Assembly (NCBI GenBank): GCA_032718475.1
Contig: JAUCBJ010008445.1
Location: 1-54,286, forward strand
Reading direction: 5' to 3'
Source: Nemertoderma westbladi
Lineage: Eukaryota; Animalia; Xenacoelomorpha
Length of the DNA stretch: 54,286 nucleotides
Shown here: positions 11 through 50,310 of the stretch, piece by piece
Numbering within the stretch: the first letter of the stretch is position 1
Layout of the letters: the number at the start of each line of letters is the position of its first letter
Program-made: the position numbers and the translations under genes
The notes under the pieces: model-generated
Told to the model about the DNA's origin: nothing
The model's database searches: none
The model's input: the letters and a program-made list of their open reading frames with translations, nothing else

Positions 11-1216
11 TGCTGGCCAGTTCCCCCCCAGGCGCTGGAATACTCTAAAAAAGGTTTTCTAACTGTATATAGATTCCCCTCGCCCGCAAGGTACCTTTAC
101 AGGTGTTTTAACGGACATAAAAATCATTCTGCTATATACGTGTTTTAGTGGACATGGTAAGACAAAAACTTGTAATGCACCAACCACCTTTCACAGCTTA
201 GCCGTGATGATTCATATTACGACATCTAGCAGCTGGTTGCTGACATGGAAACAGCCATTGGACGCGTGGTTCTTTGTTTGGCTTGGGCCAATCAGGGCGG
301 TTTTTCCTGTCGACGTGTAGCTTTTAGTCGATCATAAGGAGAGTGTTCAGTCTTACTGTTTTTTCTGGATACTTTGTTGTTATTGCTGTCTAAGCCAGAA
401 ACACCGGCATTTTTGGATAGATACTGCTGTACCGTAAACTGCTTGAATTATCGAAAGTATAAACTGTTACCTAACTGACTTAAATCACTCATCTCACCTT
501 GATACTTTTAATTGCATTAATTATATTGTTTGTACTGTTATTTTACCGTCAGTTATTAATTGTAAATATTTGTTGATGGAAATATTGCTATTTGGATAAT
601 ACGGATAAATCACCCAATTCCCAATTTTCTTGATAACACTACAGGTTAGAGAGACCGGCTATATATAACAATTGCGATTTATATTAATGTGGTGTGTATT
701 GAATCCAATGTTATTTAGCAGACCCTACGTGAGTCAATTACTGCTCTCTTTATGTGTGATCAAATGTACTGACTGGCGGCAGAATAGTGTGTATGATTGT
801 GATTGGTAACAAAGTATTTCCTAAAGAATACGTTTTATACTTTAATCATAAGCAGTATCGTTGCGTTTTAGTATAAGTCTTAGTTCTGTTTAAATAGATA
901 AAGCGCCACGTCCTAAAGGAACTGTTAATATTTCCCGAAAGCCAATAATATCTGTCAGAGATTAATTATTAACGATCTATCGAATAATACATTAGGTATA
1001 CACTGCAACCTTACACTGTAATAATACAATTCAAGCATCCGAATTCAGTCTCCCGGGTGTAGATCCATCGGGTGAATGATCGCGCATGGGCTGACTTCGG
1101 CTAATGTTTTGCGTATTAGCATAAATTATTGTCGTATGCTAAAGTGGTTTTAATTAACTAAAAGACATATAAATTTTGGCAGGTTAAACTGCTAAAGGTC
1201 TTCAAAAGCGCGAACA
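11..1216 (+). mobile_element. Solo LTR, diverged relative of the element C LTR
   Basis: TG...CA ends with GCCTA on both sides (6-10, 1217-1221). Long colinear similarity to 19564-20771, e.g. gcgccacgtcctaaaggaactgttaatatttc and the terminal ggcaggttaaactgctaaaggtc..aaaagcgcgaaca. Confidence 0.85.
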
Positions 1217-3374: not shown

Positions 3375-4023
3375 TATAAGCGGATTCAATTCCCTGCACT
3401 ACCCAGCGGAAACTGGGCGAAGTGGCATTTTACCAATTATACTTGGGAAGTTGACATTACCAATAATAATGTCAATATCACCTAATAACCAATTTAGGCG
3501 ATACACATCGCCAGCCACAAAGAAAGTTGAGAGGTCATAAACCATCTCAGAGGGACAAAGGGGCTAGCAGGGCTAGCACATGGGGATAGTGGCAACAGGT
3601 AGTGGCGTGATGGTAATTAATCGGATTAGCCAATGATGGGAGTGGAAACTGGTTATTGGAACGCATCTACTGGCCATGCCACTCAATACAGTAGCTGTGA
3701 TTAATATGTGTTAGTAATATTTTGTATTATATTGTGTTATAATATATATTGTGGATTATGATACAGTTGGTAATCTGTAGAGTTGTGAGACCGGAACAGT
3801 TTTTAACTGTCGTCATTACCGTGCTATTATATTCTGACTGTGCTATTATTATGTTCTGTGATTATAACAACTAAGACTAAAACTGAGTTATTCCAACGGC
3901 CTCCGGCCTATTATATTATATTCAGACACCACAGCCTTTCAGCAGCCTACGGACGCAGCGACGCGTATAACACAAACACACCGGTCAGGGTCCAAACTGC
4001 CAACTCCGTTGGATCCCGTCACA
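3375..4023 (+). repeat. 5' LTR of element A
   Basis: Runs t(a)taagcggattcaattccc...ggatcccgtcaca and matches 37023-37689. Confidence 0.9.
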
Positions 4024-4089
4024 GTTAAAAACTGCCAACAAGTCAACAGCCATTTAAATAAACTGTGACCACAGCCAGCGCCAACGAGA

Positions 4090-7000: not shown

Positions 7001-9558
7001 TGGTGAAATTGATCAAAATAATCTAAATAATAACGTAATATATATACAGGGTGAGGCTAGTGGCGATATAATTAATACAAACGTTGGGGAAGCAGGTAAT
7101 TCGCCCAGCCCCACAGATGTCGACGGGAAATGCGCTCAGTGATTCAAGTGAACCGGGGCTCCCGATGATGAAGGAAAGGGGGGGGAGGGCAGCAGAAGCC
7201 CCATGAGTGTCGGCAGATAATGCGCGTGGTGAGTTAAGTGAACCGTGGCACCCAGCGACAGAGGATAATAGGAGGGCAACGAATATCTGCGCGGCCGTAC
7301 AACTGGGCAGAGGGAGGGACGTTGGTGCCGTAAGCAGCCAAACGAGAAAATGTCGAGACAACTCGGAAGATGGAAGAAGGACAGTAGAGTTCATCCGGGA
7401 GGTCGATACGAGACCTCATGAAGGAGGACATAATGCTGAAACCAGAAGAAGTGAGGTGGAACGAGGTTGTGTTGCTACGGGCAATCAGAGACATCGAGAG
7501 AGGATGGACAGTGAACCGTCGATAGTCGAACTAGAGAGAGAGAGCCGGTAGGGTTGTACTCCGGGAGATTGCCGTCGCCCCGAAGGAACACAACCTGGCG
7601 AAATATACCATACACCAGGAGAGGGGTACAGAGTGTACCGATACGAGGAGGAAAACGGAGGAGGGGATCGGAGGGAAACTTCCCATCGGAACGTAGCTGC
7701 AGATTGAGGATATGGTAGTTGCGGGAAGGAGTTCTCGGAATATTCGAGAAGATTAAACGTCAATCCGGAGGGACACAGGCAGACTACAGAATATACTGTA
7801 GGCCTTACTGCGCATACTATAGGCCATGCTGGGAGAGATAGTTTGGCGATAGGGTAGCGCGAATGCCGGGATTGCACCCGGAGGTCGCGGCATACATACT
7901 GGTTAGTAGGCAGGAACCTGATAGGCCTATACCGATACCTGCACTCCAGTATGACTATAATATGCAGGGATACAATATATACTCAGGGGAGGGGGGGGGG
8001 GTATTGCAGATAGGTGTATGGGCCCCAATATAATGACATCAACCCCAGTACCAAATATAACATCGGTGGGGGGGGGGGGGGGGACAGGGTGACATTCCCC
8101 CATTACAGTATCCGCAATACGCACCTGCATGGAGCCTGCATCCCTACCGTCGAGCACGCTGGAAGTACAAGCGATGGGAACGGTAACACTCATCGACAAG
8201 CCACCAAGGTATTGAAGGAGGATTCACGACCGCATGGAGAGCCCTTGACATGGAATTTGGCCATCCTGCGAAGATTATCTGACAAACCTTAAGGGGAATA
8301 ACTTCAGGCGGACTCGCAGATAACCCCGTTAGCATCAATAATTTCGCTAACAATGTAGAGAAAGCGCTAATAGCGTTAAAGACTCTAGATGCACATTACG
8401 AACTTAATGCATCGAACAACATCACCACGATAGCACAGGCACTACCGATCTGGCTGAGGAACAAATGGAGAAAGATCGCTTTCTCCACTCGAGAAAGGAA
8501 AGGTGCAGAGCCAGGGTTGGAGGAGATGTCGAACTTCCTGAACTACAAAGGCGGAGCTAATAACAGATCCACTCTATAGTGAGGACAGTCTAGGCAAGGC
8601 AACAAAAACGGAATACAGCCAACCTAAACCCGAAAATAGTGCGGCGAATGCACTTCCGAAGGTGAGGCAGTCGCTACCGTATGCAGCCACACAGGGGACT
8701 TCACGTCCACAGGGAGTAGAGCCACACCGTGGTAGGGACAGATACCAAGTAACAACATGAACAAATACAAACCCAATACCCCCAGTAGGCCGAGTCCAAG
8801 TAACCAAAACACTAAACCGCTAGATATGAATCTAAGTGCAATACGTGAAGTGCTATATGAGGAATGCTACAATCCCGATTACAAATGTCAATTGCATAGA
8901 AACGGGACCCATAAGACCATGGACTGCAAGCATTGGCAGGCGTTACTTAAACAAGATTGGATAGCCTACACTGGTAAGAATGGACTATGTCATCGATGCA
9001 TGGTAGGAGGACACAGGAAGGATGAGTGCCAGGAACCGCCGATAAAATATGCCGAGACTGATGGGACTGGAGGCCAGGCGATGGTGACAAGCACCATGGG
9101 AGCAAAGAGGAGGGGAACAGTATTACTCGGAGTAGTACCAGTGAGGATAATAAGGGTGAACGAGCTATCGGTTACAACGCTAATGCTGCTCAATAGCGGA
9201 GCAGCGTTCACGCTAGCGGAAAGTTGGGTGGCCGAAAAGATAGGGTTATAGACAAGGTCAAGTAAGATGGCGGTAACCACAATTTCCAGCAAGGATGAGG
9301 TCATGAAAATGAGGACGGGATGATGCAAAATAGCAGCGATAACACCAGTGTGCAACTATGGGGCTACCATCAAACCCATTCAGATAATAGAGTCAATCAA
9401 CATTAACGCCAGGCAACCTACAAAGATCAAAAACGAGCAATACCGGTACCTGGACAATATTGACTTCTCCATGCCCGAAATGGACGTCCCGAAACTCATA
9501 GTCGGCATGGACTGTCTGACGGCCCACGAGAGACTACAGACCGTCTTTGGCGAGGATA
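4090..9558 (+). pseudogene. gag: Element A gag-protease region, fragmented
   Basis: Coiled-coil and Asn-rich fragments. Zn knuckles CQLH..H..C and CHRC..GH..C, plus a degenerate protease motif LLNSGA, in ORF 8757-9251. Many stops and frameshifts; start approximate. Confidence 0.7.
5262..7655 (+). repeat. Imperfect ~1.3-kb tandem duplication inside A gag
   Basis: gccaattagaact..gaggctggtt..gaaacctttgttaata..cacttacaggtaccg occurs at ~5267 and ~6568. gtcggcagataatgcgcgtggtgagtta and actccgggagattgccgtcgccc occur in both copies. Confidence 0.8.
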
Positions 9559-10279
9559 CTACTACTACTACTAGTATCGGCATGCTCCATTGCAGCTGCA
9601 TTTTTAAGAATGCTGTGCCGGCTTGTCGACAAAATTGCGCCAACACAACTCGCAATCACCAATGACATTTGCTAGATCATCCGCATCTTCAAGGCCAGTG
9701 TCCTTTAAGATGCATCTCAAGAAAGTCATGGGCTGTCCACCATGCTTTTTCACTCCATGAGGCTGCCAAAGTACAAGATTATGCACTGGCTGGTCCTCAC
9801 GGCGAAAGCAATGTCCTGCAAAGCGGAGGCGATTTTGTTCTAGTGTCAAGCTTGGGGGAACCAATGAGACACCTCCAATGTTATATAGTGTCTGGTTGGA
9901 GATGTGTGCATTGTACTTGACACAATGAACCCGGCGTAGCATTCTCGTGAATGTGCCATCCAGAGATTTGGTGTCCTCAGCAGTTAGAGCCCAGCGTGGA
10001 CTCCCATAGAGGAGTACTGGAACTACTGCTGCTCTAAATAATTGGACCTTAAGTTTCCGATTAATTCTCGGTGACTTCCAAATCCTGGAAAGCATTCAAG
10101 GCTGCCCATGCCTTTCCCTTACGTATTCGAAGGTCCTCACCTGACTTCCGGATCCATGATCCCAGGTAACAGAAATCGTCCACTTGCTCAAGCATACCAT
10201 CCTTTGAGCTTATGCTCATCTGATCAGAGACTTGCTGAGAACTTTCAAAGTTAACTGTCAAAATTTTGTTCTTTCTGGA
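9559..10279 (-). mobile_element. 5'-truncated RTE-like LINE copy with (TAG)n tail and 57-bp TSD
   Basis: Nearly identical (reverse complement) to 40590-40710 and 45473-45990. The tail reads (cta)n on the + strand from 9559. The flanks 9502-9558 and 10280-10336 are identical. Confidence 0.9.
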
Positions 10280-11729: not shown

Positions 11730-12759
11730 TAGATCGCAAATTATTCGTGGATGTGAGGTAATCGCCCAGTACACGCAACCTCGCCACTTCAACTGTGACT
11801 CGAACTCATTTACGCCAGGGGTATCTCCCTCACCGTATACATCCGTGTATTTGCTCCTCTTGCTCTCCTTATAATCCCAACTAAACATTTGGTATGAGAT
11901 ATAACCTGTTCCAGGTAATCCTGAAATATCCTTGCTCAATAGCCCAAAGCAACAATGGTCTAGTATCCACGTATGGTGTAAGCAATCAATCCTCCTCCGT
12001 GGGCATTCCTGCGAAATCGCTAATAAGGTCATCCCGTACACCGGATCCGATCTTGACGATACTTTTATCAAGTACAACGTCTCGTACGGCCTTTGGCAAC
12101 ATCCTAGCTTCGATGCTACAAGCCAGGTCCATGGATTTAACTATCTGTTTTATCATCGCGTGTCTTTGCGTCATTCCTTCCGGCATAGGCATCTTTCTGT
12201 CGCTCCTCTGTCGGCTGAAGACATGTAACACGCCATCTGGTGCTCGAATCTGCATGGTCTTTGAAGTGAGGCTTTGCTGATGACTTCCTCCTTCATTATC
12301 GTAAAACATATAACCATTCTCCTTTAGAGATCGGCTAGTTGCGTCCCAATCGTCGAGTAAATCGTCGGTAGGGTTCCAAATTCTCCCTATTGACTTTTCA
12401 TCATCGAAACTAATAGGTTTTCTGGTCCAATTGGTCGCAATATCGGTGTCGGTCTCAAACGTGCCGACTCCAATCCATAATCGAATCGTTTTTGTCAGAT
12501 ATCCTCGCAAGATGCAAGGTGCGATATCTGGCCCCGCGCGATCCACTTCCTTAAAGTCCGTAATATGTGGAGGCACGTTGCGTACGATTTTCTGTACTAT
12601 CGTTCTACGCAACTCGGCTGACTCTAACACATAACCAAAGGTAACCGATGGGAGGAAATCCAGGTTCGAAATGATCTCCGGGTGTTCTACGATAGGGTAT
12701 CTCATAAGTTGTCTCCTCTCGGGTCGGTATACTAATAGGAAAGCTGGTTGGTCTCGCAA
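11730..12759 (-). pseudogene. Element B accessory ORF, C-terminal part: DEDDy-type 3'-5' exonuclease domain (stop and frameshift)
   Basis: ExoI-like MFYDNE, then MQIRAPDGVLHVF, and ExoII-like LPKAVRDVVLDKSIVKIGSGVRDD. After the stop at 11986 the frame reads YVDTRPL. No ExoIII motif recognised. Confidence 0.7.
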
Positions 12760-13708
12760 CTGGTACTATTGCTTTAGTAGGATGGGGCTGAGGTTCTCGC
12801 GTCATCTCGACATGAGGTATCTGTAGTCTCTGCAACAAACGCTGAGCAAAGGTGATACTATCGACGAGCTCGGGTGTCATCTCCTTAGGTTCGGTTTGAT
12901 CGTGGGATATCCAGTAAAATGGTAGGCTCGCGAGCCTTCCGCCGAACTCCTCGATCTCACCTTTCTCGTACACCTTGTACGCCCTGTAGAGGCTCAAAGC
13001 TTCCCGTTTCTCTTGTGTCGACTTGTTAGACTCATCCACTACCATATTGTAGACGTCTGGTTCGACTAATTTGGGTTCGTAAATAACGATCTCACCCGCA
13101 TTCGGTCCACTCATCTTGAACGAATGGTACGGATTCGTCAAAGGGTATCCGCCTTCTTGGTAACGCAGACTTTGGTGGTATGAGCATTGTGCTAATATTG
13201 GCTCGGGGTTCTCCGAGTTTAATCGCATAGGAATCGCGTTGTCTTGCTCGCGCATACATGCTCCACATTTGTAAAACAGTTTATATATGGAGAACGCGTC
13301 CTTTGTCCCTTTGGCTCCTCGAGCGCGTCTATAAAGATGCATTCCTTCAAATTCGTCCCTGGCTGCAGGCAAGGGTTCGTTCGCCGTCAAATATTGCAGC
13401 ATATGATATAATCGGCGTATCTCCGTGTCTGGATCCTCGCAAATGTCACTGGCGTCGCATAACGCATCGTAGGGATACAACGCATTAAACTCCGCGCATA
13501 ATTCCTCCGCTCTTTTGTTATAAGCGTCCAATCTCTGTCGCGTAACATTCGGGTCCGCCTTGGATTTAGCAAGCTTGGCTGTACTCCTAGCCATACTCTC
13601 CACTCCAAACACGCTAAAGTTTTTAGCTCCATAATGATTAAACAGCGCCTGGTGCTCCTGTTCCTGCGTAAACCCCTGACGTAACTCCTTATAAATCTTC
13701 TCCGCCAT
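12605..13708 (-). CDS. Element B accessory ORF, N-terminal part (367 aa, unknown domain + CxxC..CxxH)
   Basis: ATG-started ORF downstream of pol on the same strand. Homologous to C ORF 29551-30627. Probably joined to 11986-12759 across a frameshift. Confidence 0.7.
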   Translation of the reverse strand: MAEKIYKELRQGFTQEQEHQALFNHYGAKNFSVFGVESMARSTAKLAKSKADPNVTRQRLDAYNKRAEELCAEFNALYPYDALCDASDICEDPDTEIRRLYHMLQYLTANEPLPAARDEFEGMHLYRRARGAKGTKDAFSIYKLFYKCGACMREQDNAIPMRLNSENPEPILAQCSYHQSLRYQEGGYPLTNPYHSFKMSGPNAGEIVIYEPKLVEPDVYNMVVDESNKSTQEKREALSLYRAYKVYEKGEIEEFGGRLASLPFYWISHDQTEPKEMTPELVDSITFAQRLLQRLQIPHVEMTREPQPHPTKAIVPVARPTSFPISIPTREETTYEIPYRRTPGDHFEPGFPPIGYLWLCVRVSRVA

Positions 13709-14447
13709 TATATACGCGTATATATGGTTACATATCGTTACGTTTCTACTAGATGAAGCACAAAATAAAGGTTAGATGTGAGGAGACTTAGAGTTTGTCG
13801 GCTTTTGGCTCAACTTTGCTCTAAAACTCCTACCCATTTGCCTAATGACTTCGGGTTCGCGTGATTTCGCACTGGCTCCTAATCCAAAAAAATGTGCCGA
13901 TAAAAAACGAATTCCGGGTAAACTAGCCGCGAGTCTAAAATACTCACCTTTTAATTTCCCAAACTACATTCCCAAAGAAAGTAGTGCAGTCGAGAATTAA
14001 TTTGGTCTAAATAATAGTAGACACGACTACATAGAACAAGGCCGATTTTCTTTTCCAAAAAAAATTTATCGGTAGGCTCGCAAGCCTTCCATCCGCTCTT
14101 GTCCTCCCCAATTTTAATTTTTATCTAGTTGTATTCTAGAATTCGCATTCACTGGAGAATCATTTTTCTTAAATTTAAATCCAACTAAATGGATTTGTCT
14201 AATAATTTTTGAAAAATTGTCTCACTTGTGGGTTCCAAGTAGAATTCCATTCCTACTGTACACACCATCCCGCTCCTATGTGATACATAAGGGTACTACC
14301 CTCCATGTTCACATATAAAGACAATGGAATTCCACCGCTGTCTCTATCTACAGTGAAGAGGATTACAAATGCACATACAGTAATACAAAATACTAAATTA
14401 CTAAAATACGGTAAGTCTATGTGGTGGCCATCAAGGGTTCCACATCT

Positions 14448-19314: not shown

Positions 19315-19563
19315 CGCGATTGAGCGATAATTAACAATTCCAATAACGATCCTAAATTTACAAACTATGAATAGTAAATTACAGATAAATTCTGCCTAAA
19401 AGTAATTTAAGTAAAAGTAAAAGTAATGTTCAGAAGTTTACAGTATATTTACAGTTTTACAAAGATTTATCAAACAGATCTAAAGAGTTATAACAAATAA
19501 AGTTCTAAGCAAGAGAAATGGTAACTAGAAACAAGTTCTAGGATAACAAGAGTAAGTGAAGTA

Positions 19564-20771
19564 TGTAAAGGCTTTTGCGGATCTAACTAGTTATTTTCCC
19601 CGCAAAGTACTCTGTAGGTGTTTTAACGGACATAAAAAGCCATTTCCTTACTGTACCGGTGTTTTAGTGGACATAAAAGCCATTTCTTCTATATGTGTAC
19701 TTTAGCGGACATAACTAACTGTGTACTTTAGCGGACATAACTAGCGATCGTATGTCGCAATAGCCAAAATCCTCTTGACACAGTGTAGTTACTATGACGA
19801 CGGCTAACAGCTGATCTGTACACGTGGAGCTTTTCCTTTGTTCTCTGTCGTTTCTTTGTTCGGTCGACCAATCAGAGCGTTTTTTGACTCTGTGTTGGAG
19901 GTTGTATACAGTAACTCATGAATTGAGTCAGTATGTGCATTTTGTCCTGAGCCCAGAAGACCGGCTTTGGAATCTCTGTGTTTTCAGTCTTTAGCCCAAC
20001 ATTAGTAGGCTTAATTATAGAACGTATATCTGTTATCTTACTTACAAACCAATTCATACCATACCAAACCACATAACCATTCATACCTTAACATTTGTAC
20101 TGCTATTTACTGTCGGTTATTCATTATATCAGTTGATGGAATATTATTATATTTGGAATACCGATAAATAATTACAAAACCCTCAATCTTCTTGATATAC
20201 TGAAGGTAAGAGAGACCGGTTACATATAACGATTGCGACTTACATTAAAGTGGTTTTGAAGTGAATCTAATGCTATTTCATAGGCACTACATGTATCGGT
20301 CATTGTTCTCTTTATATGTGACTAAAATTAGTGAAGGTCGGCAGATCGGTGTGCAGCATTGTGCAGTAGTGTGTATGGTATGATTGTGACTGATAACAAA
20401 GCATCTCCTAAAGAATGCGCCATATATGTGAATCCATAGCCATCCCGTTGTGTCTAGTTTAAGTCATAATTCTGTTTACATATTTAGAGCGCCACGTCCT
20501 AAAGGAACTGTTAATATTTCCTGAAAGTGAATAATATTTGTCAGAGATTATATATTACGATCAGTCGAATAATACAGTAGGCCTACACCGCAATAAGGTT
20601 AGGCTTCTGAATCCAGTCTCCCGGGTATATCCAGCGGGTGAATGGTCGCGCATAGACTGGCTTCGGCTAATGTAGTGTATCAAATACTCGTCATAGGCTA
20701 AAGTCGATTTATTATCTAGAAGACATCCAAATTTGGCAGGTTAAACTGCTAAAGGTCTAAAAGCGCGAACA
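19564..20771 (+). repeat. 5' LTR of element C
   Basis: Direct repeat of 31153-32355 with only scattered substitutions and one 5-bp indel. Confidence 0.95.
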
Positions 20772-21050
20772 ATAACAGATATAGCTTCTGTATTGCGGTA
20801 GGCAATAAAGCTGAAGTACCGGTCAACCGGTACCTAGTAGGCCTGACTACCTAACCACCCGGACCGGTACCTACAGCAGTACAGGTACAGCAGTATTATT
20901 CGATTTTGATAATTATATACCGGTAGGCCTTAATAATTAATCAGGGACTGCAGCCCTGTTTTTTTATTGAAATTTTACTTATTTCTGTCAGTTTTATTTA
21001 CTTGTAGGTTAATATTGAGCAGAAGACGTGTAAGCCTGCCCAGATTGTAC

Positions 21051-21630
21051 AGATAATTTGTAGGCTGGACTGTTGTCTGACTGTTGTTAAGTCTGAAGGG
21101 ACTGTAGTGTGTGTAGAGCGTATGTCCGAAAAAGTACTAGTTAGGAAAGTAGGGGCTTCCAGTGCTGTGAGGTAAACCCCCTCGAAAGAATAAGTCGTAC
21201 TACTCGGTTAGAACGCATACTAACTAACCATTTCGGAGTCTGCATATACTGTAGTTTATTTAGGCTTGATAGTAGTCTGCCAGCGTTTGGTTTGTACTTT
21301 GTTTGTGTAGTCTGTACTGGTAGCGTAATATTTCTTATTTAGATAATTTGTAGGCTGGATTTTGTCTGGCTGTTGTTAGGTCTGAAGAGATTTCGGTGTG
21401 TGTAGAGTGTATGTCCGATAAAGTGCCAGTTGGGAACATAGGGGCTTCCAGTGCTGTGAGGTAAACCCCCTCGAAAGAATAAGTCGTACTACTCGGTTAG
21501 AACGCATACTAACTAACCATTTCGGAGTCTGCATATACCGTAGTTTGTTTAGGCTTGATAGTAGTCTGTCAGCATTTGGTCTGCATTTTGTTTGAGTAGT
21601 CTGTACACGTAGCGTAATATTTATTATTCA
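21051..21630 (+). repeat. 290-bp tandem duplication in the 5' leader of C
   Basis: agataatttgtaggctgga... begins at 21051 and again at 21341, with a long identical core. Confidence 0.9.
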
Positions 21631-22952
21631 GAGTTTATGCGATTATTCGCAACATTCATATCCCCAAGTTTATTCCTACAGTAATTGTGCTTGTTATACA
21701 TACCGTTATAGTTAAATTAACCCCGGTACTACATCAGGGCTGCTTGGCGTAGGTAAAGACTGGTGATTTTGTGCCCCGGTCACTCCAGCAGATACCGTGG
21801 TTCTTTTAGCCGTTCAAGTATTTTAACTACTGATTATTTGTTGTATAAGTACTTGTACCTAATTTAGGGTTTAGTGTACAGTGCTTTCCGAAGGTAATTA
21901 GTGTAGGCAGTATATTTGTGTTGTAAAGTGGTTAATAGGCACGTTGGTTCTGGTAGACCGCGGTAATTAACTTCTAGGTAGGAACACTCCGTGATACATA
22001 ACGTAGTACTTATAGCGATACGGCTATAAGTCGTCAGACGGTGGTATTTTTCTTATCTGGACAACGCAGTATATTTACTACTGCTTTATTATTTTCAAAT
22101 ACCGTAGTACTCTGTCCGTTGTAATAACCAGATAATCTAACCCTTTGTTAGGCTGGTTTGTAGACTTCTTGTAAAATTACCCTAAAAATTCGTACGTGTA
22201 ATTTTGTGTTTATTTAGAGATTGTAATCTCACCCCGAATTGTATGTAATTTGTAGTATTAAGTAACTTAGGTAAATTAGAATTATTTGTTTTAGTGTCCA
22301 ACAAGTAGCACTTCACTGAGAGCGTACAGCTTCTGTGTAGTGACTCTTTCCCAGAAATAATAACATTTATTTCAAATATTGACAAAACCCATTAAAACGG
22401 GTATATATATTATAAATCAACTCAAACCGATTTATAAAATAGTAGGCCTGTCATACAACAATTAGGTCTCAATATCAGTTGGACTACTGCTTAAATAACG
22501 GTAATAAAGTAAGTTAAAGTAACCAAGTAACCCCTAAAATTCAGAAATTCAATTATTCTAAAATAATTGTATACCGGTATTCACGATAGGCCTACTATAT
22601 ATTTATAAATTTAGGCTGAAATTATACCGGTATTCTGTAATTAATTCTAGTTCATAATTATACTTATATATACTATAAGTATAAGCTGTATACCGGTATT
22701 CACGATAGGCCTATTATATATTTATATATACTTGTGCTGAAATTACATACCGGTATTCTGTGACAAATCTAGTCTGTGATAATACTTATATATATATACT
22801 ATAACCATACCGGTATTCTAATATATTATATATATATTACGCTACACTGAGTAGCAGTATCGGTAATTAATTACTAGGCTAACAGTGATACTGAATTACT
22901 AGACTTGCTTAAACTGTAATATAGCAGTAGGCATTCAACTGTACAAACAAAC

Positions 22953-23822
22953 ATGTCTGACACAAAGCAAAACCTGTCAGACAGTCTCCTAGATACAACC
23001 ATCTGTGACCCAGACAGGAGTGTGGAACGTGTGAGACCGAAGTTCAATTCACCTCCTACTGTAAGAAAGATCATCCCTCTGGTAGTAATATCAGACCCTA
23101 GGCTAGTCCAACACCGTAGGTCTATCATAGGCACTCAAGCTCAGGTCAAGCGGGACCAAGAAGCAGCGGAACAGCAACAACCCGCGAGCCGAGAACTTAT
23201 TTCTCAGCGGCCCGACAGCTCCAGTAGTGCGGATACTGTAGAGCTGACACCCGAGTGTGGAGCAAAGATGGCAGATGCGGTTTATTCGGATCCCCTTCTC
23301 ATCCTTCCTGCAGCCGTACTCACTAGAGTATTGATTGCGGTGGAGGAACACCAGATTGATTGGGCGAGAAGTAAGCGATCGACCAAGGATAGTTATGCGG
23401 GATACACAAGGGAAGAACTGAAGTCTATTGTCGAGTCGCAATGGAACTTCCCCGGACCCGGACTCCCGTTTGACTTATCGGAGGCTGCCTGGGAAGACAT
23501 ACACAGGATGGGAGTGACAAAGGAAACCAGCGATCCAGCTGTGTGGAAGAGGTCCGCAGCAGGATACGTACAGGGATTCTTCAGCTCTATGGAGCGATTA
23601 GAGGAACAGCTGTTTAGACAACCCCAAGGACCTCAAGAGCAGGGAGAGCTGCTTTATCAAGTTAGAGAAAGAATTCTAAGAATCAGACTAATCTTATCAG
23701 CCTTTGAGGAGGCTTCGAAAAGAAGACAAGACACGTCGTTGCAAGTTGCCGTAAAGACTTGGCCGTCAGCGAGTGAGTCTCAAAGTTCAAGGAACTGCCC
23801 AGTGGAAATCTCAGCTGGCTGA
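22953..23822 (+). CDS. Element C upstream ORF (289 aa), probably the Gag N-terminus offset by a +1 frameshift
   Basis: ATG-started ORF overlapping the long gag ORF by 50 nt. No recognisable domain. Confidence 0.55.
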   Translation: MSDTKQNLSDSLLDTTICDPDRSVERVRPKFNSPPTVRKIIPLVVISDPRLVQHRRSIIGTQAQVKRDQEAAEQQQPASRELISQRPDSSSSADTVELTPECGAKMADAVYSDPLLILPAAVLTRVLIAVEEHQIDWARSKRSTKDSYAGYTREELKSIVESQWNFPGPGLPFDLSEAAWEDIHRMGVTKETSDPAVWKRSAAGYVQGFFSSMERLEEQLFRQPQGPQEQGELLYQVRERILRIRLILSAFEEASKRRQDTSLQVAVKTWPSASESQSSRNCPVEISAG

Positions 23823-26800
23823 GCGCTCAACTCATGGAGAATCAACAGACGCTACCTTTTCCCAAGTGGAAAGCGAAGCGACAGCAGAGAAACCGCATAA
23901 GAGGTATGCTATTGACATCTATCTGTCAGACTATCAACGCTTTGTAGGTGATGAAGAGTTGAGGAGAAGGCTAGATGGACTTAGCCCTAATAGTGAAGGA
24001 GCCAAGCTTGTGTTGGACGCAATCGATGCGGATATGAGTGCTGCGAACCAAGCTAAATTTGATGAACGCCTCCGCATCACTAGGGTCCAAGAAGAACAAG
24101 TAAAGAAAAAACGTATAGAAGACAGAAAGACAGTGGCAGTGGCAGCAGCAGTGGCAGCAGCAGAAGCGGAAAGAAAAGTGGCAGCAGCAGTGGCAGCAGC
24201 AGAAGCGGAAAGAAAAGTGGCAGCGGCAGCGGCAGAAGCGGAAAGAAAAGCGGCAGCAGCCGAAGCGGAAAGAAAGGCGGCAGTGGCAGCGGCAGAGGCA
24301 GTGGCAGAAGCAGAACGGAGAGCGTCTGAAGAAACCACCCAACTAGAATTGGAAAACATTCAGGAGAATCAAGACTGCATAAATAAACAGTTAACAGCTA
24401 GTCAAATGCAGATGATGAGTCGATCAACTCCCAAAAGAAAGGGATATACATCATCTGAGGAAGGCGATACCACCGATCCTGAAGGCGGAGGAAATAGATC
24501 TCGTCTAAGCAGACGTAGAAGAATGTCCCACCGTCAGAAATTGCCTGATTTGCCCCCAGCTGTTAGAAGGCAACTAACTAACACAAACTTAGGTAGTACA
24601 GAACCCACAGACCAAATAATTAACATAGAAAGACTCCCTACTATAGTAGATGAGCCTGAAATAATTAGGCCTGTTCTCGAAGCCACCCCTTCGGTGATAG
24701 AGACTCCTGTACTCCCAGAACCTACCTCTAAATTCCCTTTGCATAGCACTAAACTACCTGTGCCCAGCAGAACAGCCCATGAGACAGTTCCTGTTCTGGA
24801 CTCCGAGCGAAATATCAATGATTTGTCGCCCGTTGTCCCCCGTCCACCCGCTACTACGTTGGCGACTCCCGCTTCGGCGGTCGAGTGGGTGGATGAGAGA
24901 CGGCGGGGGATGGATCTCCTGCTCGGGCAGATGCAGGAGACTGTTAAGCAGTTCAAGGGCACAGTAAGGGAAAGTAGGTTAGAGTTGCAAGAAGTGCAGC
25001 AAAGTATCGCGTTAGAACGCGATAAATTAGTAAATACACAAAGGGGTATACCACCACCCCCGGTAACAATGTGTCAACCTGTTAGGTCTGAAGTATTTCA
25101 TGCGCAAGGTGTGGAGCCTACACGCATCTATACTGCTAGCGAAGTGGAAACTCCTATAGTAAACCCTATTAAGGGTAATTATAAACCTGTTGACAATGAT
25201 ATTCCATATAGACTTGATAATAATCCGAGAAATTTATATACCGATAACTCGATATTAAATAACACGATGGCCCAAGAAAGTTTTACGCGTCAAATGGCTA
25301 GAACCGAAGCCCGTCAAGCGGTAAAGGTGGGAGAGATCGTCAAGTTCAATGGAGATGAGATGAAATGGTTACCTTTTAATGAATATTACAAAGATAACAT
25401 ACAGAACTCTGTGCTATCTAACGGAGAGAAACTTAGATTCCTCATCGAGTGCTTGGAAGGATCTCCCAAGTTAATGGCGTTAAAGTTTATTGGACATCCC
25501 GATGGATTAAGACAAGTTTGGGATACCCTAAACATCAGGTATGGTAATAGGAATAACATAGCTAGGTATTTGTATGCAAAATTGGTAGCGCCCCGAAAGA
25601 TCATTAGCAGCGGGATAATAGAGTTTTCCGATGAGATTCAAGAGATCTGTAGACAATTAGATTGGCTAGGTAGGTCTCATGAATATCAGAGTTCTATGGT
25701 TATTGGAGCTGTGGCCTCTACTTTACCGAAGGGTGGAGTAGGTACACGCTGGGATAAGAAAGTGTTATATATGATGGAACAGCAACGACGAGACCCTACC
25801 ATGGCTGATCTCATGTCATTCTTAGATGGAGAAGTGAAATTACAGCTCCTAAAGCAGTCCAGAGAGAAGACACCGGAAAACAAGGTAAGTGAGAAACCCG
25901 TTTCTAGGAGAAAGGTAATACCAGTGTGTTATACAGACGACGGCGAAAGCCAGGCTTCTCAAGAGGAAGACAGCGGGAAAGACACTGAAAGATCTTACTA
26001 TGACAACAAAGCGCCTAAGGACGTAAGTAAATTCAAGTCTCGAACCAATGACAGGAGAGAACAGGTAAGAAAAACTCCTCCTACGTCTCCTAAGAGAATT
26101 CATGTAAGAAAGCCCGAAGAAAGAACGAGTGTGCACAACGTTACTCAAAGTAAGGTAAGTAACATCAAACCAAAATGTGTGCTGTGCGACAGGCCCCACC
26201 GTTTAAGTGCGTGTGATGAATTCCTGAGGAAATCACTAAAGGACAGACGTGAAGTCATGTGGGATAAGCGGTTGTGTTATAATTGCCTCAGACGAGGACA
26301 CCAACGGCGAACCTGTTACTCCGACGCAAGGTGTGCAAAGTGCGGCGCAAAACATCATATCTTGTTGCACACTGAATTCGATCGAAACAGCCCGAGTCAG
26401 GTAAGTGAGTCCGAACTACATGTCCAATTCAGTGATGTGAACGACACTGACCAAAGTTCTGAGATGGAAGGATTCTATACGGACGAATTCTCCGATGAAA
26501 ACGAATCCTGTTACCTGATAAATACCGCAGTGTATCGAGCACTTACGTATGAAGAGGACACCGACAGCGAGCTCCCCCTAACTACTTCTGACCGACAACC
26601 ATCTTGGAAAGCACCAACTTCCAATGTAGGAATCCGAGAATTTCCTGTAGTACAGTTGAGGGTCCACGGACCTAAAAGGAGTTATATAGTGAACGCCCTC
26701 CTTGACTCCGGTAGCACAGGAACATTCATCGACAAAGAACTAGCCGAAGACATCTTTGCTGGACAACCCAAGTTCCGAACTAAGTTAAACATGTCAGGAA

Positions 26801-27915
26801 TTATGCAGGTTTGGAAATCTACAGTAATAACGGATTATTATGTAGGTGCGTTGTCCACCCCCCAGGATGAACTAGGAGAACACAGCATAAGGTCAGTAAA
26901 AATGGTGGCGATAAAGAACTTCGCTACCAGCCAAGTAGAACCTTATAACTGGGATGAGGACGATTCCACCCAGCAGCTTAATATACCTAGATTCAACACA
27001 GACTACCCTGGAGTGCAAATACTCATCGGCCAAAATGCGCATGAGGCGCTTGAGACATTGGAGAAACGGCCTGCTCAACCGCAACCACTACAAGCCTATG
27101 CGGGAAGAACTAGAGTAGGTTGGTACCTTACTGGCCCTTCCCGTAGAACTCTCATAGAAAGGTTACCAAAAGAACGGGTATACCAAGTAAGTGAATGGGA
27201 AGCGGAGAGCAGTGAAGTAGACGACCCAACTGAGGGAACACTATACTCCTCAGATAATGACGATATTAACTCCAATGTAGATCAATGGAGACATTGCCCC
27301 GAGACGATTAATCTAGCCGACATCGCTTCCAGAGGAGCAACTCCTCAAGAACTGACAGATACTCCAGACTGGTTAGGTGGACCCGACTTCCTAAGTAAAG
27401 AAGATGAATGGCCTCCCCATCTTACCACGGCTGAGATTAGACAAGCCAAGGGAGCGGAGAAAGTCAAACCTAAAACCCAGACGAGTAAATCAAGGTTATT
27501 TAAACCCGTGATAGATCTGTCTGTACTACACATTGCCAGAGACGATGCTGTGGATCTAAACTCCCCCACCGCGAACCGATCTGTTGTGGAGATCAGAGAG
27601 AGAGACTGGAGATCTGGAACACCAGACGTCTCGCCGGGACTCTCACCTCTCCTGCCGGGAGCGATGGACCACTATAGATCCTGGAATCGGCTTTGTAGGG
27701 CCGTCGTGTATTTGAAGCGATGTTTCTATCGTCACTATTCCAGGACGAAGAGGAAACCTGGAATTGTCTTCGAGACACAGCAGCTCAATCGCCCAGTTGG
27801 TCGTTTATATTTACTGGAACGAGACCGAGAACTGTCCGGAAACTATGGAAGGCAAGATACTCTTCCCACGACCACCTCCCTAATCCAACAAACATCTAGG
27901 GACTCCCCAACGTAA
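23773..27915 (+). CDS. gag: Element C Gag-protease polyprotein fused in frame to RNase H-end and integrase-tail remnants
   Basis: KFNGDEMKWLPF (DUF1759-like), BEL triple Zn knuckle CVLC..H..C / CYNC..GH..C / CAKC..HH..LH, protease ALLDSGS, then WRHCPETINLADIASRG and RPVGRLYLLE. Confidence 0.88.
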   Translation: MSLKVQGTAQWKSQLAERSTHGESTDATFSQVESEATAEKPHKRYAIDIYLSDYQRFVGDEELRRRLDGLSPNSEGAKLVLDAIDADMSAANQAKFDERLRITRVQEEQVKKKRIEDRKTVAVAAAVAAAEAERKVAAAVAAAEAERKVAAAAAEAERKAAAAEAERKAAVAAAEAVAEAERRASEETTQLELENIQENQDCINKQLTASQMQMMSRSTPKRKGYTSSEEGDTTDPEGGGNRSRLSRRRRMSHRQKLPDLPPAVRRQLTNTNLGSTEPTDQIINIERLPTIVDEPEIIRPVLEATPSVIETPVLPEPTSKFPLHSTKLPVPSRTAHETVPVLDSERNINDLSPVVPRPPATTLATPASAVEWVDERRRGMDLLLGQMQETVKQFKGTVRESRLELQEVQQSIALERDKLVNTQRGIPPPPVTMCQPVRSEVFHAQGVEPTRIYTASEVETPIVNPIKGNYKPVDNDIPYRLDNNPRNLYTDNSILNNTMAQESFTRQMARTEARQAVKVGEIVKFNGDEMKWLPFNEYYKDNIQNSVLSNGEKLRFLIECLEGSPKLMALKFIGHPDGLRQVWDTLNIRYGNRNNIARYLYAKLVAPRKIISSGIIEFSDEIQEICRQLDWLGRSHEYQSSMVIGAVASTLPKGGVGTRWDKKVLYMMEQQRRDPTMADLMSFLDGEVKLQLLKQSREKTPENKVSEKPVSRRKVIPVCYTDDGESQASQEEDSGKDTERSYYDNKAPKDVSKFKSRTNDRREQVRKTPPTSPKRIHVRKPEERTSVHNVTQSKVSNIKPKCVLCDRPHRLSACDEFLRKSLKDRREVMWDKRLCYNCLRRGHQRRTCYSDARCAKCGAKHHILLHTEFDRNSPSQVSESELHVQFSDVNDTDQSSEMEGFYTDEFSDENESCYLINTAVYRALTYEEDTDSELPLTTSDRQPSWKAPTSNVGIREFPVVQLRVHGPKRSYIVNALLDSGSTGTFIDKELAEDIFAGQPKFRTKLNMSGIMQVWKSTVITDYYVGALSTPQDELGEHSIRSVKMVAIKNFATSQVEPYNWDEDDSTQQLNIPRFNTDYPGVQILIGQNAHEALETLEKRPAQPQPLQAYAGRTRVGWYLTGPSRRTLIERLPKERVYQVSEWEAESSEVDDPTEGTLYSSDNDDINSNVDQWRHCPETINLADIASRGATPQELTDTPDWLGGPDFLSKEDEWPPHLTTAEIRQAKGAEKVKPKTQTSKSRLFKPVIDLSVLHIARDDAVDLNSPTANRSVVEIRERDWRSGTPDVSPGLSPLLPGAMDHYRSWNRLCRAVVYLKRCFYRHYSRTKRKPGIVFETQQLNRPVGRLYLLERDRELSGNYGRQDTLPTTTSLIQQTSRDSPT

Positions 27916-29550
27916 CAGCGTCTGGAGTGGGTGTGTGACTATATTATTTTATATTTGTTTTTATTATTTTATATTTATGTATGTATTATTATGTAATTTT
28001 ATTATAATCGTTTTCTTTAATTTTATTTAGTAGAATGTTATTTTAGCGATTATTTAGTAGATTAGTGCAATATATATTAGTGTTTATTACTTAATTACTT
28101 ATATATTATATATTTAGTGCGACGGCGAGAAATAATTCTTTTTCTCTTTCCTTACTGTCCGTATTACATTACAAATACGTAACTACAGTAAGATGAAATG
28201 TCCGTACTTATTAAAGTACAATAAAGCTCCTACTATATTCAAGTATTATTGGTAAGTAGAGTATTAGGAATGCAAAATTCAGATCCTCGTGTCTCGGCTA
28301 AACCAAGCTCTGGGTAGACCTTGGAAACGACTTGCCTCTTCTCACTGACATTGCTTCGTGCGATATTGCTCTCATACCGTATCTCAAATAGTACATATAG
28401 TAGCGTGATGTCCCTTTAACAGTAGCGTACAACGCAAAAATAAATCTGTTAAACCCTTTGACCATCTGTAATTCTAGTCGATTAAGATATCGCGGCACCC
28501 ACCGATATACTTGAAAGACAAAATTCTAGAATCAGTGGTTAACGTCCCCAGACATGTTCTGGAATAAACTGGTGCCCATCCTTAAATATTAATTATTAAT
28601 ATTTACAAAATCTGTCAAATTTTAGATCCTTTAAAATTCTAGTCTATTAAGATATCGTAGCACTTACCGATATTCTTAAAAGGACCAATTTCCTAGAATC
28701 AAGGATCCTAGTCCCCAGACATGTTCTGGAATAAAATTGTGTCTATTTCATATTAAATAATAAAATTTACGGGAATAAATTTAAATTCATGTTTTAATGA
28801 ATTTGATAAATTGTCATCTTTATACAATTCATAACATTCCCAAAATTCCATTAATTAATAGATCATGGGAGCGGAGATTCACTCTATTAAGTGTATTAGT
28901 GTGCGAGAATCTCCAATATAGTCAATAGCCGATAAAATTCATAAAATCATGTATAAAGAGGAATATTGACAATTAAAGAATTACTATTAAATAGCATCCC
29001 AGATCTGTATGCTTGGGAATTACCCTAATTCTACCGCTAGCTTTCCATAATGTCACCATGGCAACAACCACGCTAGAATTAGAAGTGAGTTAAAAGAACA
29101 ATAAAGCTTGCCCATTGAATAGCATAAGGAATAAATAGCACACTGCTAGTATCCCAGGATACCCAATAATAACGTGGCATTCTGGAAGGCACTGACTAAC
29201 GGACAAATGGCCCGAATGTGAGCGATTTGTGACAGTTGTGTGGAATTTGTGCGTTTATAGGTGAATGTTACTACTAAAGTGTGTTTGCAGTAGCGAGTCG
29301 CAATTGTGAAAGTAACCCTAACTCTCCAGTAAGAACCTGAAGTAAATCTAAGCCTTTGGGACGGACGGTGGAGTGACTCGCGCTGGTTGTTGTGGTCGTT
29401 GTGCAGCTACGACGTTGGCGATAGGCACATCGGCGAAAGTACACCAGCGCTGAGGATCTTGCGCTGTCCGGGGGCCGAGAGGGGTAGGCAGCGACGCCCG
29501 CTAGCCCAAATATAAACTCATTATAATATTGATAAACTCATATAGCAGAT

Positions 29551-30627
29551 ATGACTGAGTTGATAGAAGATGATCTTGGTATCAGGGAGCGATATACTCT
29601 ACCTTTACAAGCGTTTGTTGATAGCTTGATACGCGGCGACGCTGGTCCAACTACTACGGAGGACGATGATCGTTATATCGAACCGCCAATGTCCCAGGAG
29701 CAACTTACGCGTGAATTGGACTATAGAAAATTCACCGCTCGCTATGCGCATCGTAATGGTACGTATATGGACTTCTTAACTACTGGCCATCCTATCGATT
29801 TACACGATACGGACGATGTAGACACCGAAAGGGAAATGGTTTTATTTAAATATCCTACCCAGCGGAGGCGGAACGATAAACCGAGAATGGAACACGAGAA
29901 TTCTATTCGAAACAGACTCGAAGGAGAAGACATTGAAGAGCCGGATAAACGCAGCGACTTCAACGATTATCTGGAATTCCTGAGAGAAACATATCTCAAT
30001 ATTGCCAATCAACAAAATCCAGAAACTCGATATCCTCAAGGTATACATCATGATCCTATGATAGAACTCAAACGACTCTATTTCACTATGATGTATCTTA
30101 CCGCCGATCGACCGCTACCTGTCATCCCAGATAGCTTCGAACAGATGGAGGAATATTGTAAAACCGAATAAATATCACCCGCGTTTCCCCTATAAGACGT
30201 GCGTCTTTGGTATTATTGCGATGAATGCCCAAGACCCAACCAACAAACGGAAAGACATAAACATCCGCGGAGACGTTGCTTTAAACACGGTTTTACTCGC
30301 TATATTTACGGGAGTTTCGAGCGAAACTTGTTCGATGTATCACCGACGCTCGCTCGACTCAAACGATCCTTAAATAAACCTATGATCCGAGTTCCGGAAT
30401 ACTCGGTCAGACCTCCTCATTCCCTAGTTAGACCTCAGACTCTTGATCCTAATAGTATCACGGATCCTCCCGAACTGTCCTCACTGTCCAAAGATCTAGT
30501 GTTACTCGAACAGTTAGTCGGTGGCACTCCGGTTGTGGGCTCCCTAAATATTCGCCCATCTTACCTAGTCGGATTGGGACGCAGACATCTAATATCGCCA
30601 TTCAACTGTGTCATCGTCCCTGTTTAA
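29551..30627 (+). pseudogene. Element C accessory ORF (one in-frame stop at 30169-30171)
   Basis: ORFs 29551-30171 and 30199-30627 share a frame. DPMIELKRLYFTMMYLTADRPLP and YYCDEC..RCFKH match the B accessory ORF. Confidence 0.75.
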
Positions 30628-31152
30628 CCCGATACAACCTGTCACCGCGGCGGAGGAAAGAGTTATACGAAACGCGTTGGACACTATTCGTCAAAAGATC
30701 GGAAAATGAACCTACAATTGTTTAGAGAAACATAAATTACAGTAGCAAGTCCAAGCGGTAAACGAGTTAACTTTATCTCAGTTCGATCAGGAAATTCAGA
30801 ATCTCTAAGAAGATATCGAACTTGGACGACCCTATTCTCTGCAAGAGTTTTGGACGAACGCATCCAACGATAAGCGGAGGAAAATCAGCTCGAGGAGAAG
30901 CATATCGAAATGGACGAGACATCGACCGTAACCCTAAACCTTCAGATGCAATTGTATTGCACCCTTTACCCAGGAGTTATGGCCCTCCTAGTAAAGTGGC
31001 TCACCCCAAAGAGAAAAGGACTCTTGCTAGCCTCCAAAAAACTGCGTAAACGCCGTCTGCGCAAGAAAAACTAACTGTTTAGAGTATTTTTATATTTTAG
31101 AAACTGTGATTTTTTATATTTTATAGAATTAAATCCCATTTTCTGGGAGCGG

Positions 31153-32355
31153 TGTAAAGGCTTTTGCGGATCTAACTAGTTATTTTCCCCGCAAAGTACT
31201 CTGTAGGTGTTTTAACAGACATAAAAAGCCGTTTCCTTACTGTACCGGTGTTTTAGTGGACATAAAAGCCATTTCTTCTATATGTGTACTTTAGCGGACA
31301 TAACTAACTGTGTACTTTAGCGGACATAACTAGCGATCTTATGTCGCAATAGCCAAAATCCTCTTGACACAGTGTAGTTACTATGACGACGGCTAACAGC
31401 TGATCTGTACACGTGGAGCTTTTCCTTTATTCTCTGTCGTTTCTTTGTTCGGTCGACCAATCAGAGCGTTTTTTGACTCTGTGTTGGAGGTTGTATACAG
31501 AAACTCATGAATTGAGTCAGTATGTGCATTTTGTCCTGAGCCCAGAAGACCGGATTTGGAATCTCTGTGTTTTCAGTCTTTAGCCCAACATTAGTAGGCT
31601 TAATTATAGAACGTATATCTGTTATCTTACTTACAAACCAATTCATACCATACCAAACCACATAACCATTCATACCTTAACATTTGTACTGCTATTTACT
31701 GTCGGTTATTCATTATATCAGTTGATGGAATATTATTATATTTGGAATACCGATAAATAATTACAAAACCCGCAATCTTCTTGATATACTGAAGGTAAGA
31801 GAGACCGGTTACATATAATGATTGCGACTTACATTAAAGTGGTTTTGAAGTGAATCTAATGCTATTTCATAGGCACTACATGTATCGGTCATTGTTCTCT
31901 TTATATGTGACTAAAATTAGTGAAGGTCGGCAGATCGGTGTGCAGCATTGTGCAGTATTGTGTATGATTGTGACTGATAACAAAGCATCTCCTAAAGAAT
32001 GCGCCATATACGTGAATCCATAGCCATCCCGTTGTGTCTAGTTTAAGTCATAACTCTGTTTACATATTTAGAGCGCCACGTCCTAAAGGAACTGTTAATA
32101 TTTCCCGAAAGTGAATAATATTTGTCAGAGATTATATATTACAATCAGTCGAATAATACAGTAGGCCTACACCGCAATAAGGTTAGGCTTCCGAATCCAG
32201 TCTCCCGGGTATATCCAGCGGGTGAATGGTCGCGCATAGACTGGCTTCGGCTAATGTAGTGTATCAAATACTCGTCATAGGCTAAAGTCGATTTATTATC
32301 TAGAAGACATCCAAATTTGGCAGGTTAAACTGCTAAAGGTCTAAAAGCGTGAACA
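31153..32355 (+). repeat. 3' LTR of element C
   Basis: Copy of 19564-20771, preceded by the short purine-rich gggagcgg. Confidence 0.95.
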
Positions 32356-32360
32356 AAGTA

Positions 32361-32801
32361 AGTGATAACTAGAAAGTAACTAGTGATAACCGAAGGCAAA
32401 CCGGCCCTTATATAGTAAATCTGGGACATAGAATCCGCTAGAACCTTCCAGAGCATTCCATGGCCTCACATTGGATCAATAAGATGTTCCATGCCCTATG
32501 ATTGGCCCAACTCATCGTTTCATATGTTGTACGCACCTCATTGGTTTACCAAATTAGATCAAATTAAAATAAATTGCCCAAAAATGCAAATTTCCCGACT
32601 GGGATTCGAACTCGTAACCTATCTGTAATGTAACCAATGCCTTAACCATCTGACCACTGCGCCATTAGATTACCTACAGATTTTATGTGTACCAATATGA
32701 ATAGGCATATTACATTACTATAATTTAATCAAAATGCGTCAGATTTTAGAAAGTTTTTACGTTAAACTACAAATGCTACCTTATAGTGAAATAATCCATC
32801 A
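32361..32801 (-). promoter_or_regulatory. Probable U3 part of the element B 5' LTR (continues at 19563 to ~19340)
   Basis: Starts TG at the TSD. On the minus strand it has several CCAAT boxes and TATATAA (~32408-32414). No second LTR copy is available to confirm. Confidence 0.6.
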
Positions 32802-37022: not shown

Positions 37023-37689
37023 TGTAAGCGGATTCAATTCCCTGCACTACCCAGCAGAAAATGGGCGAAGTGGCATTTTACCAATTATACTTGGGAAGGT
37101 GACATTACCAATAATAATGTCAACTAACAACCAATTTAGGCGATACACATCGCCAGCCACAAAGAAAGTTGAGAGGTCATAAACCATCTCAGGGGACAAA
37201 GGGGCTAGCAGGGCTAGCACGTGGGGAGAGTGGCAACAGGGAGTGGCGTGATGGTAATTAATCGGTTTAGCCAATGATGGGAGGGGAAAAGGTGGCGTGG
37301 TGATGGTGATGGCGTGGTGAAAAGGATGGCAGGTGATTGGAACGCATCTACTGGCCAGGCCACTCAATACAGTAGCTGTGATTAATATGTGTTAGTAATA
37401 TATAACCGTTGCACTTGTGGATTATGATTCAGTTGGTAATCTGTAGAGTTGTGAGACTGGAACGGTTTTTAACCGTCGTCATTACCGTGCTATCATATTC
37501 TGACTGTGCTATTATTATGTTCTGTGATTATAACAACTAAGACTAAAACTGAGTTATTCCAACGGCCTCCGGCCTATTATATTATATTCAGACACCACAG
37601 CCTTTCAGCAGCCTACAGACGCGGCGACGCGTATAACACACACACACCAGTCGGGGTCCAAACTGCCAACTCTGTTGGATCCCATCACA
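37023..37689 (+). repeat. 3' LTR of element A
   Basis: Runs tgtaagcggattc...cccatcaca. TATATAA at ~37399 with TCAGT about 30 nt downstream. Confidence 0.9.
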
Positions 37690-40710: not shown

Positions 40711-40769
40711 CTACTGTGGGATCTCCAACACTACCAATTTGTTTCCTACGTATTTGATAATTTGGGCCC

Positions 40770-45077: not shown

Positions 45078-45143
45078 CATCTGAGTAAGAACGAATTTTA
45101 GCTCGGGACCGCCTCAGACGGCTAACCCGAGCTCGGAAGGGGG

Positions 45144-50110: not shown

Positions 50111-50310
50111 TACTACAGGACATAGGTAACCAGTTAAATAAACAAATGAATTAACCTCGTATTCTATTAAGTCAACTTATACTATTACTAGGATTACACA
50201 TTATACTATTACTTATCTTAATACTAATCTTATGTTAATATGTATGTATTACCGTATACATAATCTGCATGTACATTGTATAGCCCATATTTTTACAATA
50301 TTTTTCTATA

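Follow-up and report, generated by a model that had tools for sequence, protein, structure and literature searches.

How does a BEL/Pao retrotransposon begin minus-strand DNA synthesis when no tRNA-type primer site follows its 5' LTR? The question is raised by an element, hereafter element C, that lies in a 54,286-nucleotide contig of Nemertoderma westbladi (JAUCBJ010008445.1), the whole of which is referred to as the window. According to the ICTV Belpaoviridae profile, members of this group are primed by host tRNA through an 18-nt site that pairs with the 3' terminus of tRNA-Arg or tRNA-Gly (PMC8742986), and the available text of a further report describes an insect element with an 18-nt tRNA-Tyr site (PMC4580426). 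Here we describe complementarity between the primer position of element C and its own LTR, together with counterparts in related elements, and propose that a BEL/Pao group likely starts copying with its own RNA rather than with a host tRNA.

Element C and its surroundings

The boundaries of element C were obtained by aligning its LTR pair (19564-20771 and 31153-32355; TGT...ACA), the members of which are identical at 1189 of 1209 positions (98.3%). Since the LTR end was set by this alignment together with the AAGTA flanks, it is independent of the self-priming hypothesis. The features of the element are as follows:

19564..20771, + strand: 5' LTR, 1208 bp, TGT...ACA, delimited by the LTR-pair alignment
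31153..32355, + strand: 3' LTR, with the 12-mer of the predicted primer at 31614-31625
19559..19563 (left) and 32356-32360 (right), + strand: target-site duplication AAGTA
31145..31152, + strand: polypurine tract GGGAGCGG, adjoining the 3' LTR
21051..21632, + strand: tandem repeat pair, about 290 bp each, in the 2.1-kb leader
22920..23822, + strand: open frame of 300 codons, which overlaps the beginning of the gag frame and has no Pfam match
23755..27915, + strand: 1386-codon frame with BEL/Pao Gag (DUF1759, E 5e-11), zinc-knuckle region, protease, and the end of the Pao RNase H/Peptidase_A17 region
29536..30171, + strand: extra ORF downstream of pol, no Pfam match, related to the extra ORF of element B at 12605-13771 (E 5e-7 to 2e-6)

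Mapping of the 1386-codon frame against full-length polyproteins with tblastn places the protease directly next to the end of the RNase H region, and by Pfam and tblastn mapping RT, most of RNase H, and integrase are missing from the element. DUF1759 or Peptidase_A17 is listed for 25 of the 27 homologues. Among the features that characterize BEL/Pao elements, element C has paired TG...CA LTRs, a target duplication, a polypurine tract, a BEL/Pao Gag (DUF1759, zinc knuckles), and a protease, whereas the gag-PR-RT-RH-IN order is absent from it and is found in elements A and B. Its class assignment follows from the protein domains, which are of the BEL/Pao type and not those of a Ty3/gypsy chromovirus Gag-Pol (Tf1/sushi), and is made despite the lack of a tRNA primer site. 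No Rfam matches were found within 19500-33000. Judged by these features, element C is a young, non-autonomous (deleted) BEL/Pao LTR retrotransposon.

Element C is nested inside element B, which is in turn nested inside element A:

3375-37689, + strand: element A, a degenerate BEL/Pao element hosting B and C (5' LTR 3375..4023; 3' LTR 37023-37689)
11709-32801, - strand: element B, a BEL/Pao element with target duplication TGGGG, which keeps RT, RNase H, integrase, and extra ORFs; gag region and primer site missing

The best RT matches of element B are to molluscs, echinoderms, and cnidarians (40-50%). Its two ends are unlike each other, and the insertion point of element C falls within an apparent element B LTR, about 50 nt downstream of a TATA box. 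Element B further contains a motif resembling the primer site of element C (19486-19506) and, in its right end, a tRNA-like B-box stretch (32595-32670) in which ARAGORN called no tRNA; tRNA genes were found neither in the window nor in the 30 scanned of the 92 outside loci introduced below. Solo or partial LTRs related to element C (1-1216 and about 48507-49190) and to element A (38781-39022) all retain a motif at the primer position. The window also holds a non-LTR RT frame (39259-45994) that is broken up by Gypsy-type pol sequence with RNase H and integrase (42816-44684). The 3' part of this non-LTR frame recurs, inverted and free of the Gypsy interruption, inside element A (9557-10279). A 1142-codon open LINE frame (50284-53712) has PHD, endonuclease, and RT domains.

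The primer position of element C

The sequences relevant to priming, several of them predicted, are listed below:

20772..20783, + strand: primer-binding position of element C, ATAACAGATATA, exact reverse complement of 20025-20036, no TGG
20025..20036, + strand: predicted self-primer of element C, TATATCTGTTAT, 12 nt, contiguous
19868..19911, + strand: CCAAT box (19868) and TATA-like TATACAG (19905) in the element C LTR, aligned with the TATAAAA of the related LTR starting near 48507
20206..20739, + strand: predicted intron-like segment of the element C LTR, between primer and LTR end, donor AAG/GTAAGA and acceptor CAG/
452..476, + strand: homologous primer motif in the C-related solo LTR (1-1216), which is 73% identical over its 3' 690 bp and has no interior, so that its primer site is unreadable
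3797..3807, + strand: predicted self-primer of element A, 11 nt
4024..4034, + strand: primer-binding position of element A, GTTAAAAACTG, complement of 3797-3807, no TGG

The first-pass annotation had read 20772-20783 as the perfect reverse complement of 20025-20036, starting at the LTR boundary, and had noted that no TGG tRNA-type site is present. Both observations hold: given the LTR pair and the AAGTA duplication, the complementarity is exactly 12 nt long and begins with the first base past the 5' LTR (gap 0), and TGG is absent within 6 nt of the LTR end in element C as well as in element A, so that neither carries the 18-nt site complementary to a tRNA 3' end by which ICTV describes BEL/Pao. 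Matches of at least 12 nt arose in 5 of 5000 dinucleotide shuffles of the element C LTR (shuffle mean 5.8). Among the 2128 start positions in 20772-22899 only 20772 reaches 12 nt, and the 12-mer, when up to one mismatch is allowed, is found nowhere but in the primer site and once in each LTR. The match at the primer site of element C is a real, non-chance feature.

All 12 pairs are present in the minimum-energy fold of the element C leader, with pair probabilities of 0.74-1.0 for three assumed starts, with or without 20206-20739. The duplex (12 bp) is AU-rich, has a predicted energy of -11.8 kcal/mol, and closes a loop of 735 nt. With respect to the three-duplex pretzel of Tf1, the central duplex forms in the predicted fold and the flanking duplexes are not evident in it. 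The CCAAT box is located 157 nt, and the TATA-like motif 120 nt, upstream of the primer site, which would place the transcription start near 19930-19935, about 90 nt upstream of that site.

Both splice sites of the intron-like segment are kept in the solo LTR at 1-1216, and removal of the segment would leave a last exon of 32 nt. Its joint has no complement anywhere in the interior of element C. A GT-AG joint at 20205/20740 is absent among the 12 joints listed from 752 sequencing-run contigs along element C, contigs that are uninformative on either start or splicing. The predicted intron must stay in the replicating RNA of element C or be restored from the 3' LTR.

The match of element A is 11 nt long, has letters unlike those of element C, and was equalled in 1 of 1000 site shuffles. 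Its 3' LTR copy (37463-37473) and a third LTR copy show one differing position, which would pair as G-U. With an RNA start at 3765 the element A duplex is not part of the minimum-energy fold (pair probability 0.04), and it forms only when the RNA starts at the site itself. The primer site of element A also folds into a small hairpin with a 7-nt loop.

Relatives outside the window and predicted splice junctions

Outside loci were collected by alignment on the RT of element B and comprised 80 loci on metagenome contigs and 12 in prokaryote genome bins (L081-L092), the latter being presumably host DNA contamination; a search of viral contigs returned no relatives. A repeat brackets the coding region in 32 of the 80 metagenome loci, from which L030 and L068 were excluded because no LTR end is bracketed by their terminal repeats, and loci without an LTR pair (48/80 metagenome and 6/12 genome-bin loci) were not counted. 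Shuffles and cross-pairs served as controls. The insect element with the tRNA-Tyr site we take to belong to BEL/Pao.

Where the LTR pair of an outside locus diverges, TGG is missing from the sequence that follows in all cases but one. A first, unbiased scan found no contiguous matches after CA at the true LTR ends of the outside loci, and it was this failure that led to a splice-junction reading: in most outside LTRs a GT-AG intron is predicted, and the exon-exon joint is the reverse complement of the primer position. Under strict rules (GT[AG]AG donor, gap of at most 4 nt), matches of 10-15 nt were obtained for 13 of 14 elements (C, A, and 12 loci) and were equalled in no more than 4/1000 site shuffles and 3/300 LTR shuffles; L061 fails under the strict donor. 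In a blind scan, 30 of 61 loci gave matches compared to 11 of 183 shuffles, a few of the matches in loci lying at places other than LTR ends.

The rules were then widened post hoc, after six missed loci had been read by eye, to include donors GT[AT]CGT, acceptor AAG, a gap of up to 6 nt, and an intron of up to 1200 nt. Under these widened rules 37 of 38 rows (30 metagenome, 6 genome-bin, C, and A) match over 10-15 nt, each with at most 1/100 shuffles, 31 of the 37 across a predicted junction and 6 contiguously. Counting outside loci with an LTR and a primer site only, 35/36 match their own LTR under the same rules, 4 contiguously and 31 only across a predicted GT-AG junction. It is important to note that for 19 of these 36 the match was already in view when the LTR end was inferred; where the end was given independently of the hypothesis by LTR-pair divergence, 16 of 17 outside loci match over 10-15 nt. 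In a held-out set scored under rules fixed beforehand, two of five scored loci were clean (L084 and L087), L086 gave 11 nt but at 8/500 with a mis-set LTR span, L083 (8 nt, 21/500) and L092 fell below 10 nt, and L089 was unscored. Once boundaries were set by eye, L086, L089, and L092 pass, and L083 shows 10/11 across a junction (one mismatch).

The predicted LTR introns range from 66 to 1022 nt across loci (L084, 1380-1718; L087, 1355-1806; L089, 1022 nt). A strict TATA box was found upstream of the primer in only 4 of 25 loci (at 31, 49, 133-135, and 221 nt), and start sites are consequently not generalisable.

Because many loci may share few hosts, the unit of evidence was taken to be the site class, defined by the first 10 nt of the primer site, and not the locus. 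Matches to the own LTR of at least 10 nt were found in 26 of the 27 site classes, versus 10 of 702 cross-pairs; TGG occurs in a single class, which also matches its own junction. Covariation can be followed in the close relatives L084 and L087, in which the last three bases before the donor are CAC and TAA and the primer sites carry GTG and TTA, respectively, that is, two base differences just before the donor are met by two compensating changes in the primer sites. A comparison of related families with shuffled controls had been set beforehand, in the first-pass annotation, as one of the tests on which self-priming could fail; it returned family-specific complementarity far above both shuffles and cross-pairs.

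An RT tree of 26 of the 80 loci and 16 database proteins places elements A and B in a group of 39 rows (96/99) separate from five insect rows, a placement that carries a long-branch warning. In a Gag-protease tree element C is a long branch (SH-aLRT 81). As all three are long branches, the kinship of C, A, and B to the outside loci appears loose.

Proposed mechanism, alternatives, and known systems

From these data we judge it probable that element C primes minus-strand DNA in cis from its own RNA, cut by RNase H, with enzymes supplied by a relative; given that the element has neither RT nor a full RNase H, cleavage and priming must come in trans. Transcription is predicted to start near 19930, after which 20025-20036 would fold onto 20772-20783. 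By analogy with Tf1, the RNase H of a trans-acting RT may cleave immediately 3' of the 12-bp duplex, and the upstream fragment, bearing about 90 extra unpaired nt, could be extended across 20771 back to 20037. Despite the internal position of the primer, a single cleavage where the duplex ends on its 3' side would still free it, and all sequence upstream of the cut would be supplied again by the 3' LTR copy, in which the same 12-mer is present. In most relatives the primer would be assembled by splicing of the 5' LTR intron, and the 3' LTR intron would have to remain unspliced for inheritance. The earlier proposal that a cleaved 5' leader serves as primer is partly supported: its core is strengthened by the family-specific complementarity in relatives, and it is amended in that the enzymes would act in trans and in that the primer of most relatives lies across a predicted junction.

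A wider reading, which we favour to a moderate degree, is that a large BEL/Pao branch of aquatic animals dropped tRNA priming, and that most of its families remove an intron from the 5' LTR by splicing, creating a joint that pairs with the primer site, and retain the intron of the 3' LTR. The contiguous primers of C and A are what loss of the intron would give.

A primer of the element's own sequence might also come from elsewhere, i.e. from a short LTR-only transcript (ex. of a solo LTR), a dimer partner RNA, or the 3' LTR copy. Both LTRs of element C contain the 12-mer, solo LTRs with a homologous site lie in the window, and AWTAAA follows the primer inside the LTR in most junction-type LTRs, making a short spliced LTR transcript possible. 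We nevertheless regard such an origin as unlikely, since the duplex forms readily in cis in the predicted fold of element C, Tf1 acts in cis as far as the available text of its reports goes, and a junction primer could arise only from spliced RNA, while the inherited 3' LTR must keep its intron.

It is quite unlikely, in our estimation, that the duplex has a purely structural role, for example in leader folding, a block to early polyadenylation, packaging, or 5'-3' pairing, with priming by something else. Such a role would suit a site about 90 nt inside the predicted transcript, and the 3' OH of the primer is a prediction. What argues against it is that in every one of the 37 matching rows the match begins 0-6 nt past the LTR end, the place at which a primer has to stop if it is to define the DNA terminus, that no other primer site is visible, and that an A-pyrimidine is conserved at the primer end.

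This conserved end bears in turn on a third alternative, in which a host tRNA cut in its anticodon loop primes, as for copia and Ty5, and the complement in the LTR is secondary. Predicted primer ends, that of element C included, fit the anticodon-loop pattern Y-U-NNN-R plus 1-3 nt in 19 of 27 classes compared to 8.4 expected; they share U at -6 (21/26), A at -2 (23/26), and a pyrimidine at -1 (26/26), all three of which are present in C and A, and the loops read from C and A are GUU and UUU, respectively. Anticodon-loop primer sites are known for Copia-type elements from the available part of PMC10886601. Against these points, three GUU-loop classes have three different 5' flanks, two classes imply stop-codon anticodons, and the anticodons deduced in this way are scattered; the 5' half of each site tracks its own exon 1 letter by letter, with the compensating changes of L084 and L087; and the sequence past the primer forms no anticodon stem in cis (mean 1.5/5 pairs). 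We find priming by a half-tRNA unlikely, and the loop-like primer ends may reflect a preference of the enzyme or be a remnant of their origin. A chance match in AT-rich sequence, which the modest energy of a 12-bp AU-rich duplex (-11.8 kcal/mol) and the many elements read in the scan might invite, is hardly credible given the 5/5000 shuffles for element C and the presence of comparable matches, made of different letters, in A and 35 of 36 outside loci.

Reportedly, the C. elegans BEL element Cer7 has been proposed to encode its own tRNA-like primer. So far, Tf1 is the only element for which self-priming has been demonstrated; predictions exist for some Gypsy and plant Copia lineages. For BEL/Pao we found no published account of it in the texts searched: it is unreported in the available text of PMC6317226, PMC3601003, PMC4600332, PMC5341516, PMC8220671, PMC3286476, PMC4580426, and PMC10886601, and term searches of the text of PMC554778, PMC3118150, and PMC6238403 returned no mention of PBS, priming, or tRNA. 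The elements described here resemble ICTV BEL/Pao in having LTRs of up to 1.2 kb, a polypurine tract, gag-PR-RT-RH-IN in A and B, DUF1759, Peptidase_A17, and DUF5641, and differ from it in the lack of TGG in C, A, and 26 of 27 site classes (PMC8742986). With the half-tRNA systems (Drosophila copia, Ty5, Bianca, and fungal Helenus) they share a site without TGG and anticodon-loop-like primer ends; in those systems, however, the site matches a host tRNA, whereas in the BEL/Pao relatives it matches the own LTR, family by family.

Predicted self-primers with at least 10 nt of complementarity 0-5 nt past the LTR are reported for the plant Ty1/copia TAR lineage (Houba, Osr-1) and the Tcn1 clade in the available text of PMC6317226. 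That survey of plant Copia and Gypsy elements used the same criterion as we do, concerns other superfamilies and hosts, and in its available text makes no mention of a splice-junction primer; its predictions extend self-priming beyond one superfamily (PMC6317226).

The closest counterparts are Tf1 and Tf2 of Schizosaccharomyces pombe and the Tf1/sushi group (Ty3/gypsy chromoviruses, including Tj1 and Tosmo), which, in the available text of PMC7175516, 10.1101/2022.12.06.519325, and PMC4600332, likewise lack a tRNA site and have 11-12 nt of LTR complementarity just past the 5' LTR. For Tf1, pairing to the primer site involves the first 11 bases, RNase H cleavage falls between bases 11 and 12 (available text of PMC7175516), and a three-duplex structure is required (available text of 10.1101/2022.12.06.519325). 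Element C agrees with Tf1 in having a primer site complementary to its own LTR and no tRNA site. Unlike Tf1/sushi elements, it has BEL/Pao Gag and Pol, no RT of its own, and a 735-nt loop; unlike in Tf1, its primer probably lies away from the transcript's 5' end, the promoter motifs placing it about 90 nt inside, and in most BEL/Pao relatives splicing is predicted to be needed for the primer.

If the proposed reading is true, self-primers would exist in all three LTR superfamilies, and tools that require a tRNA site would miss or misjudge those of BEL/Pao. The splice-junction form would be a new way of making a primer, placing reverse transcription under spliceosome control, and raises the question of how one RNA splices the intron in one LTR yet retains it in the other. 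Set beside the known systems, self-priming of element C would represent a known mechanism in a superfamily described as tRNA-primed, and the splice-junction primer of its relatives would be new in kind.
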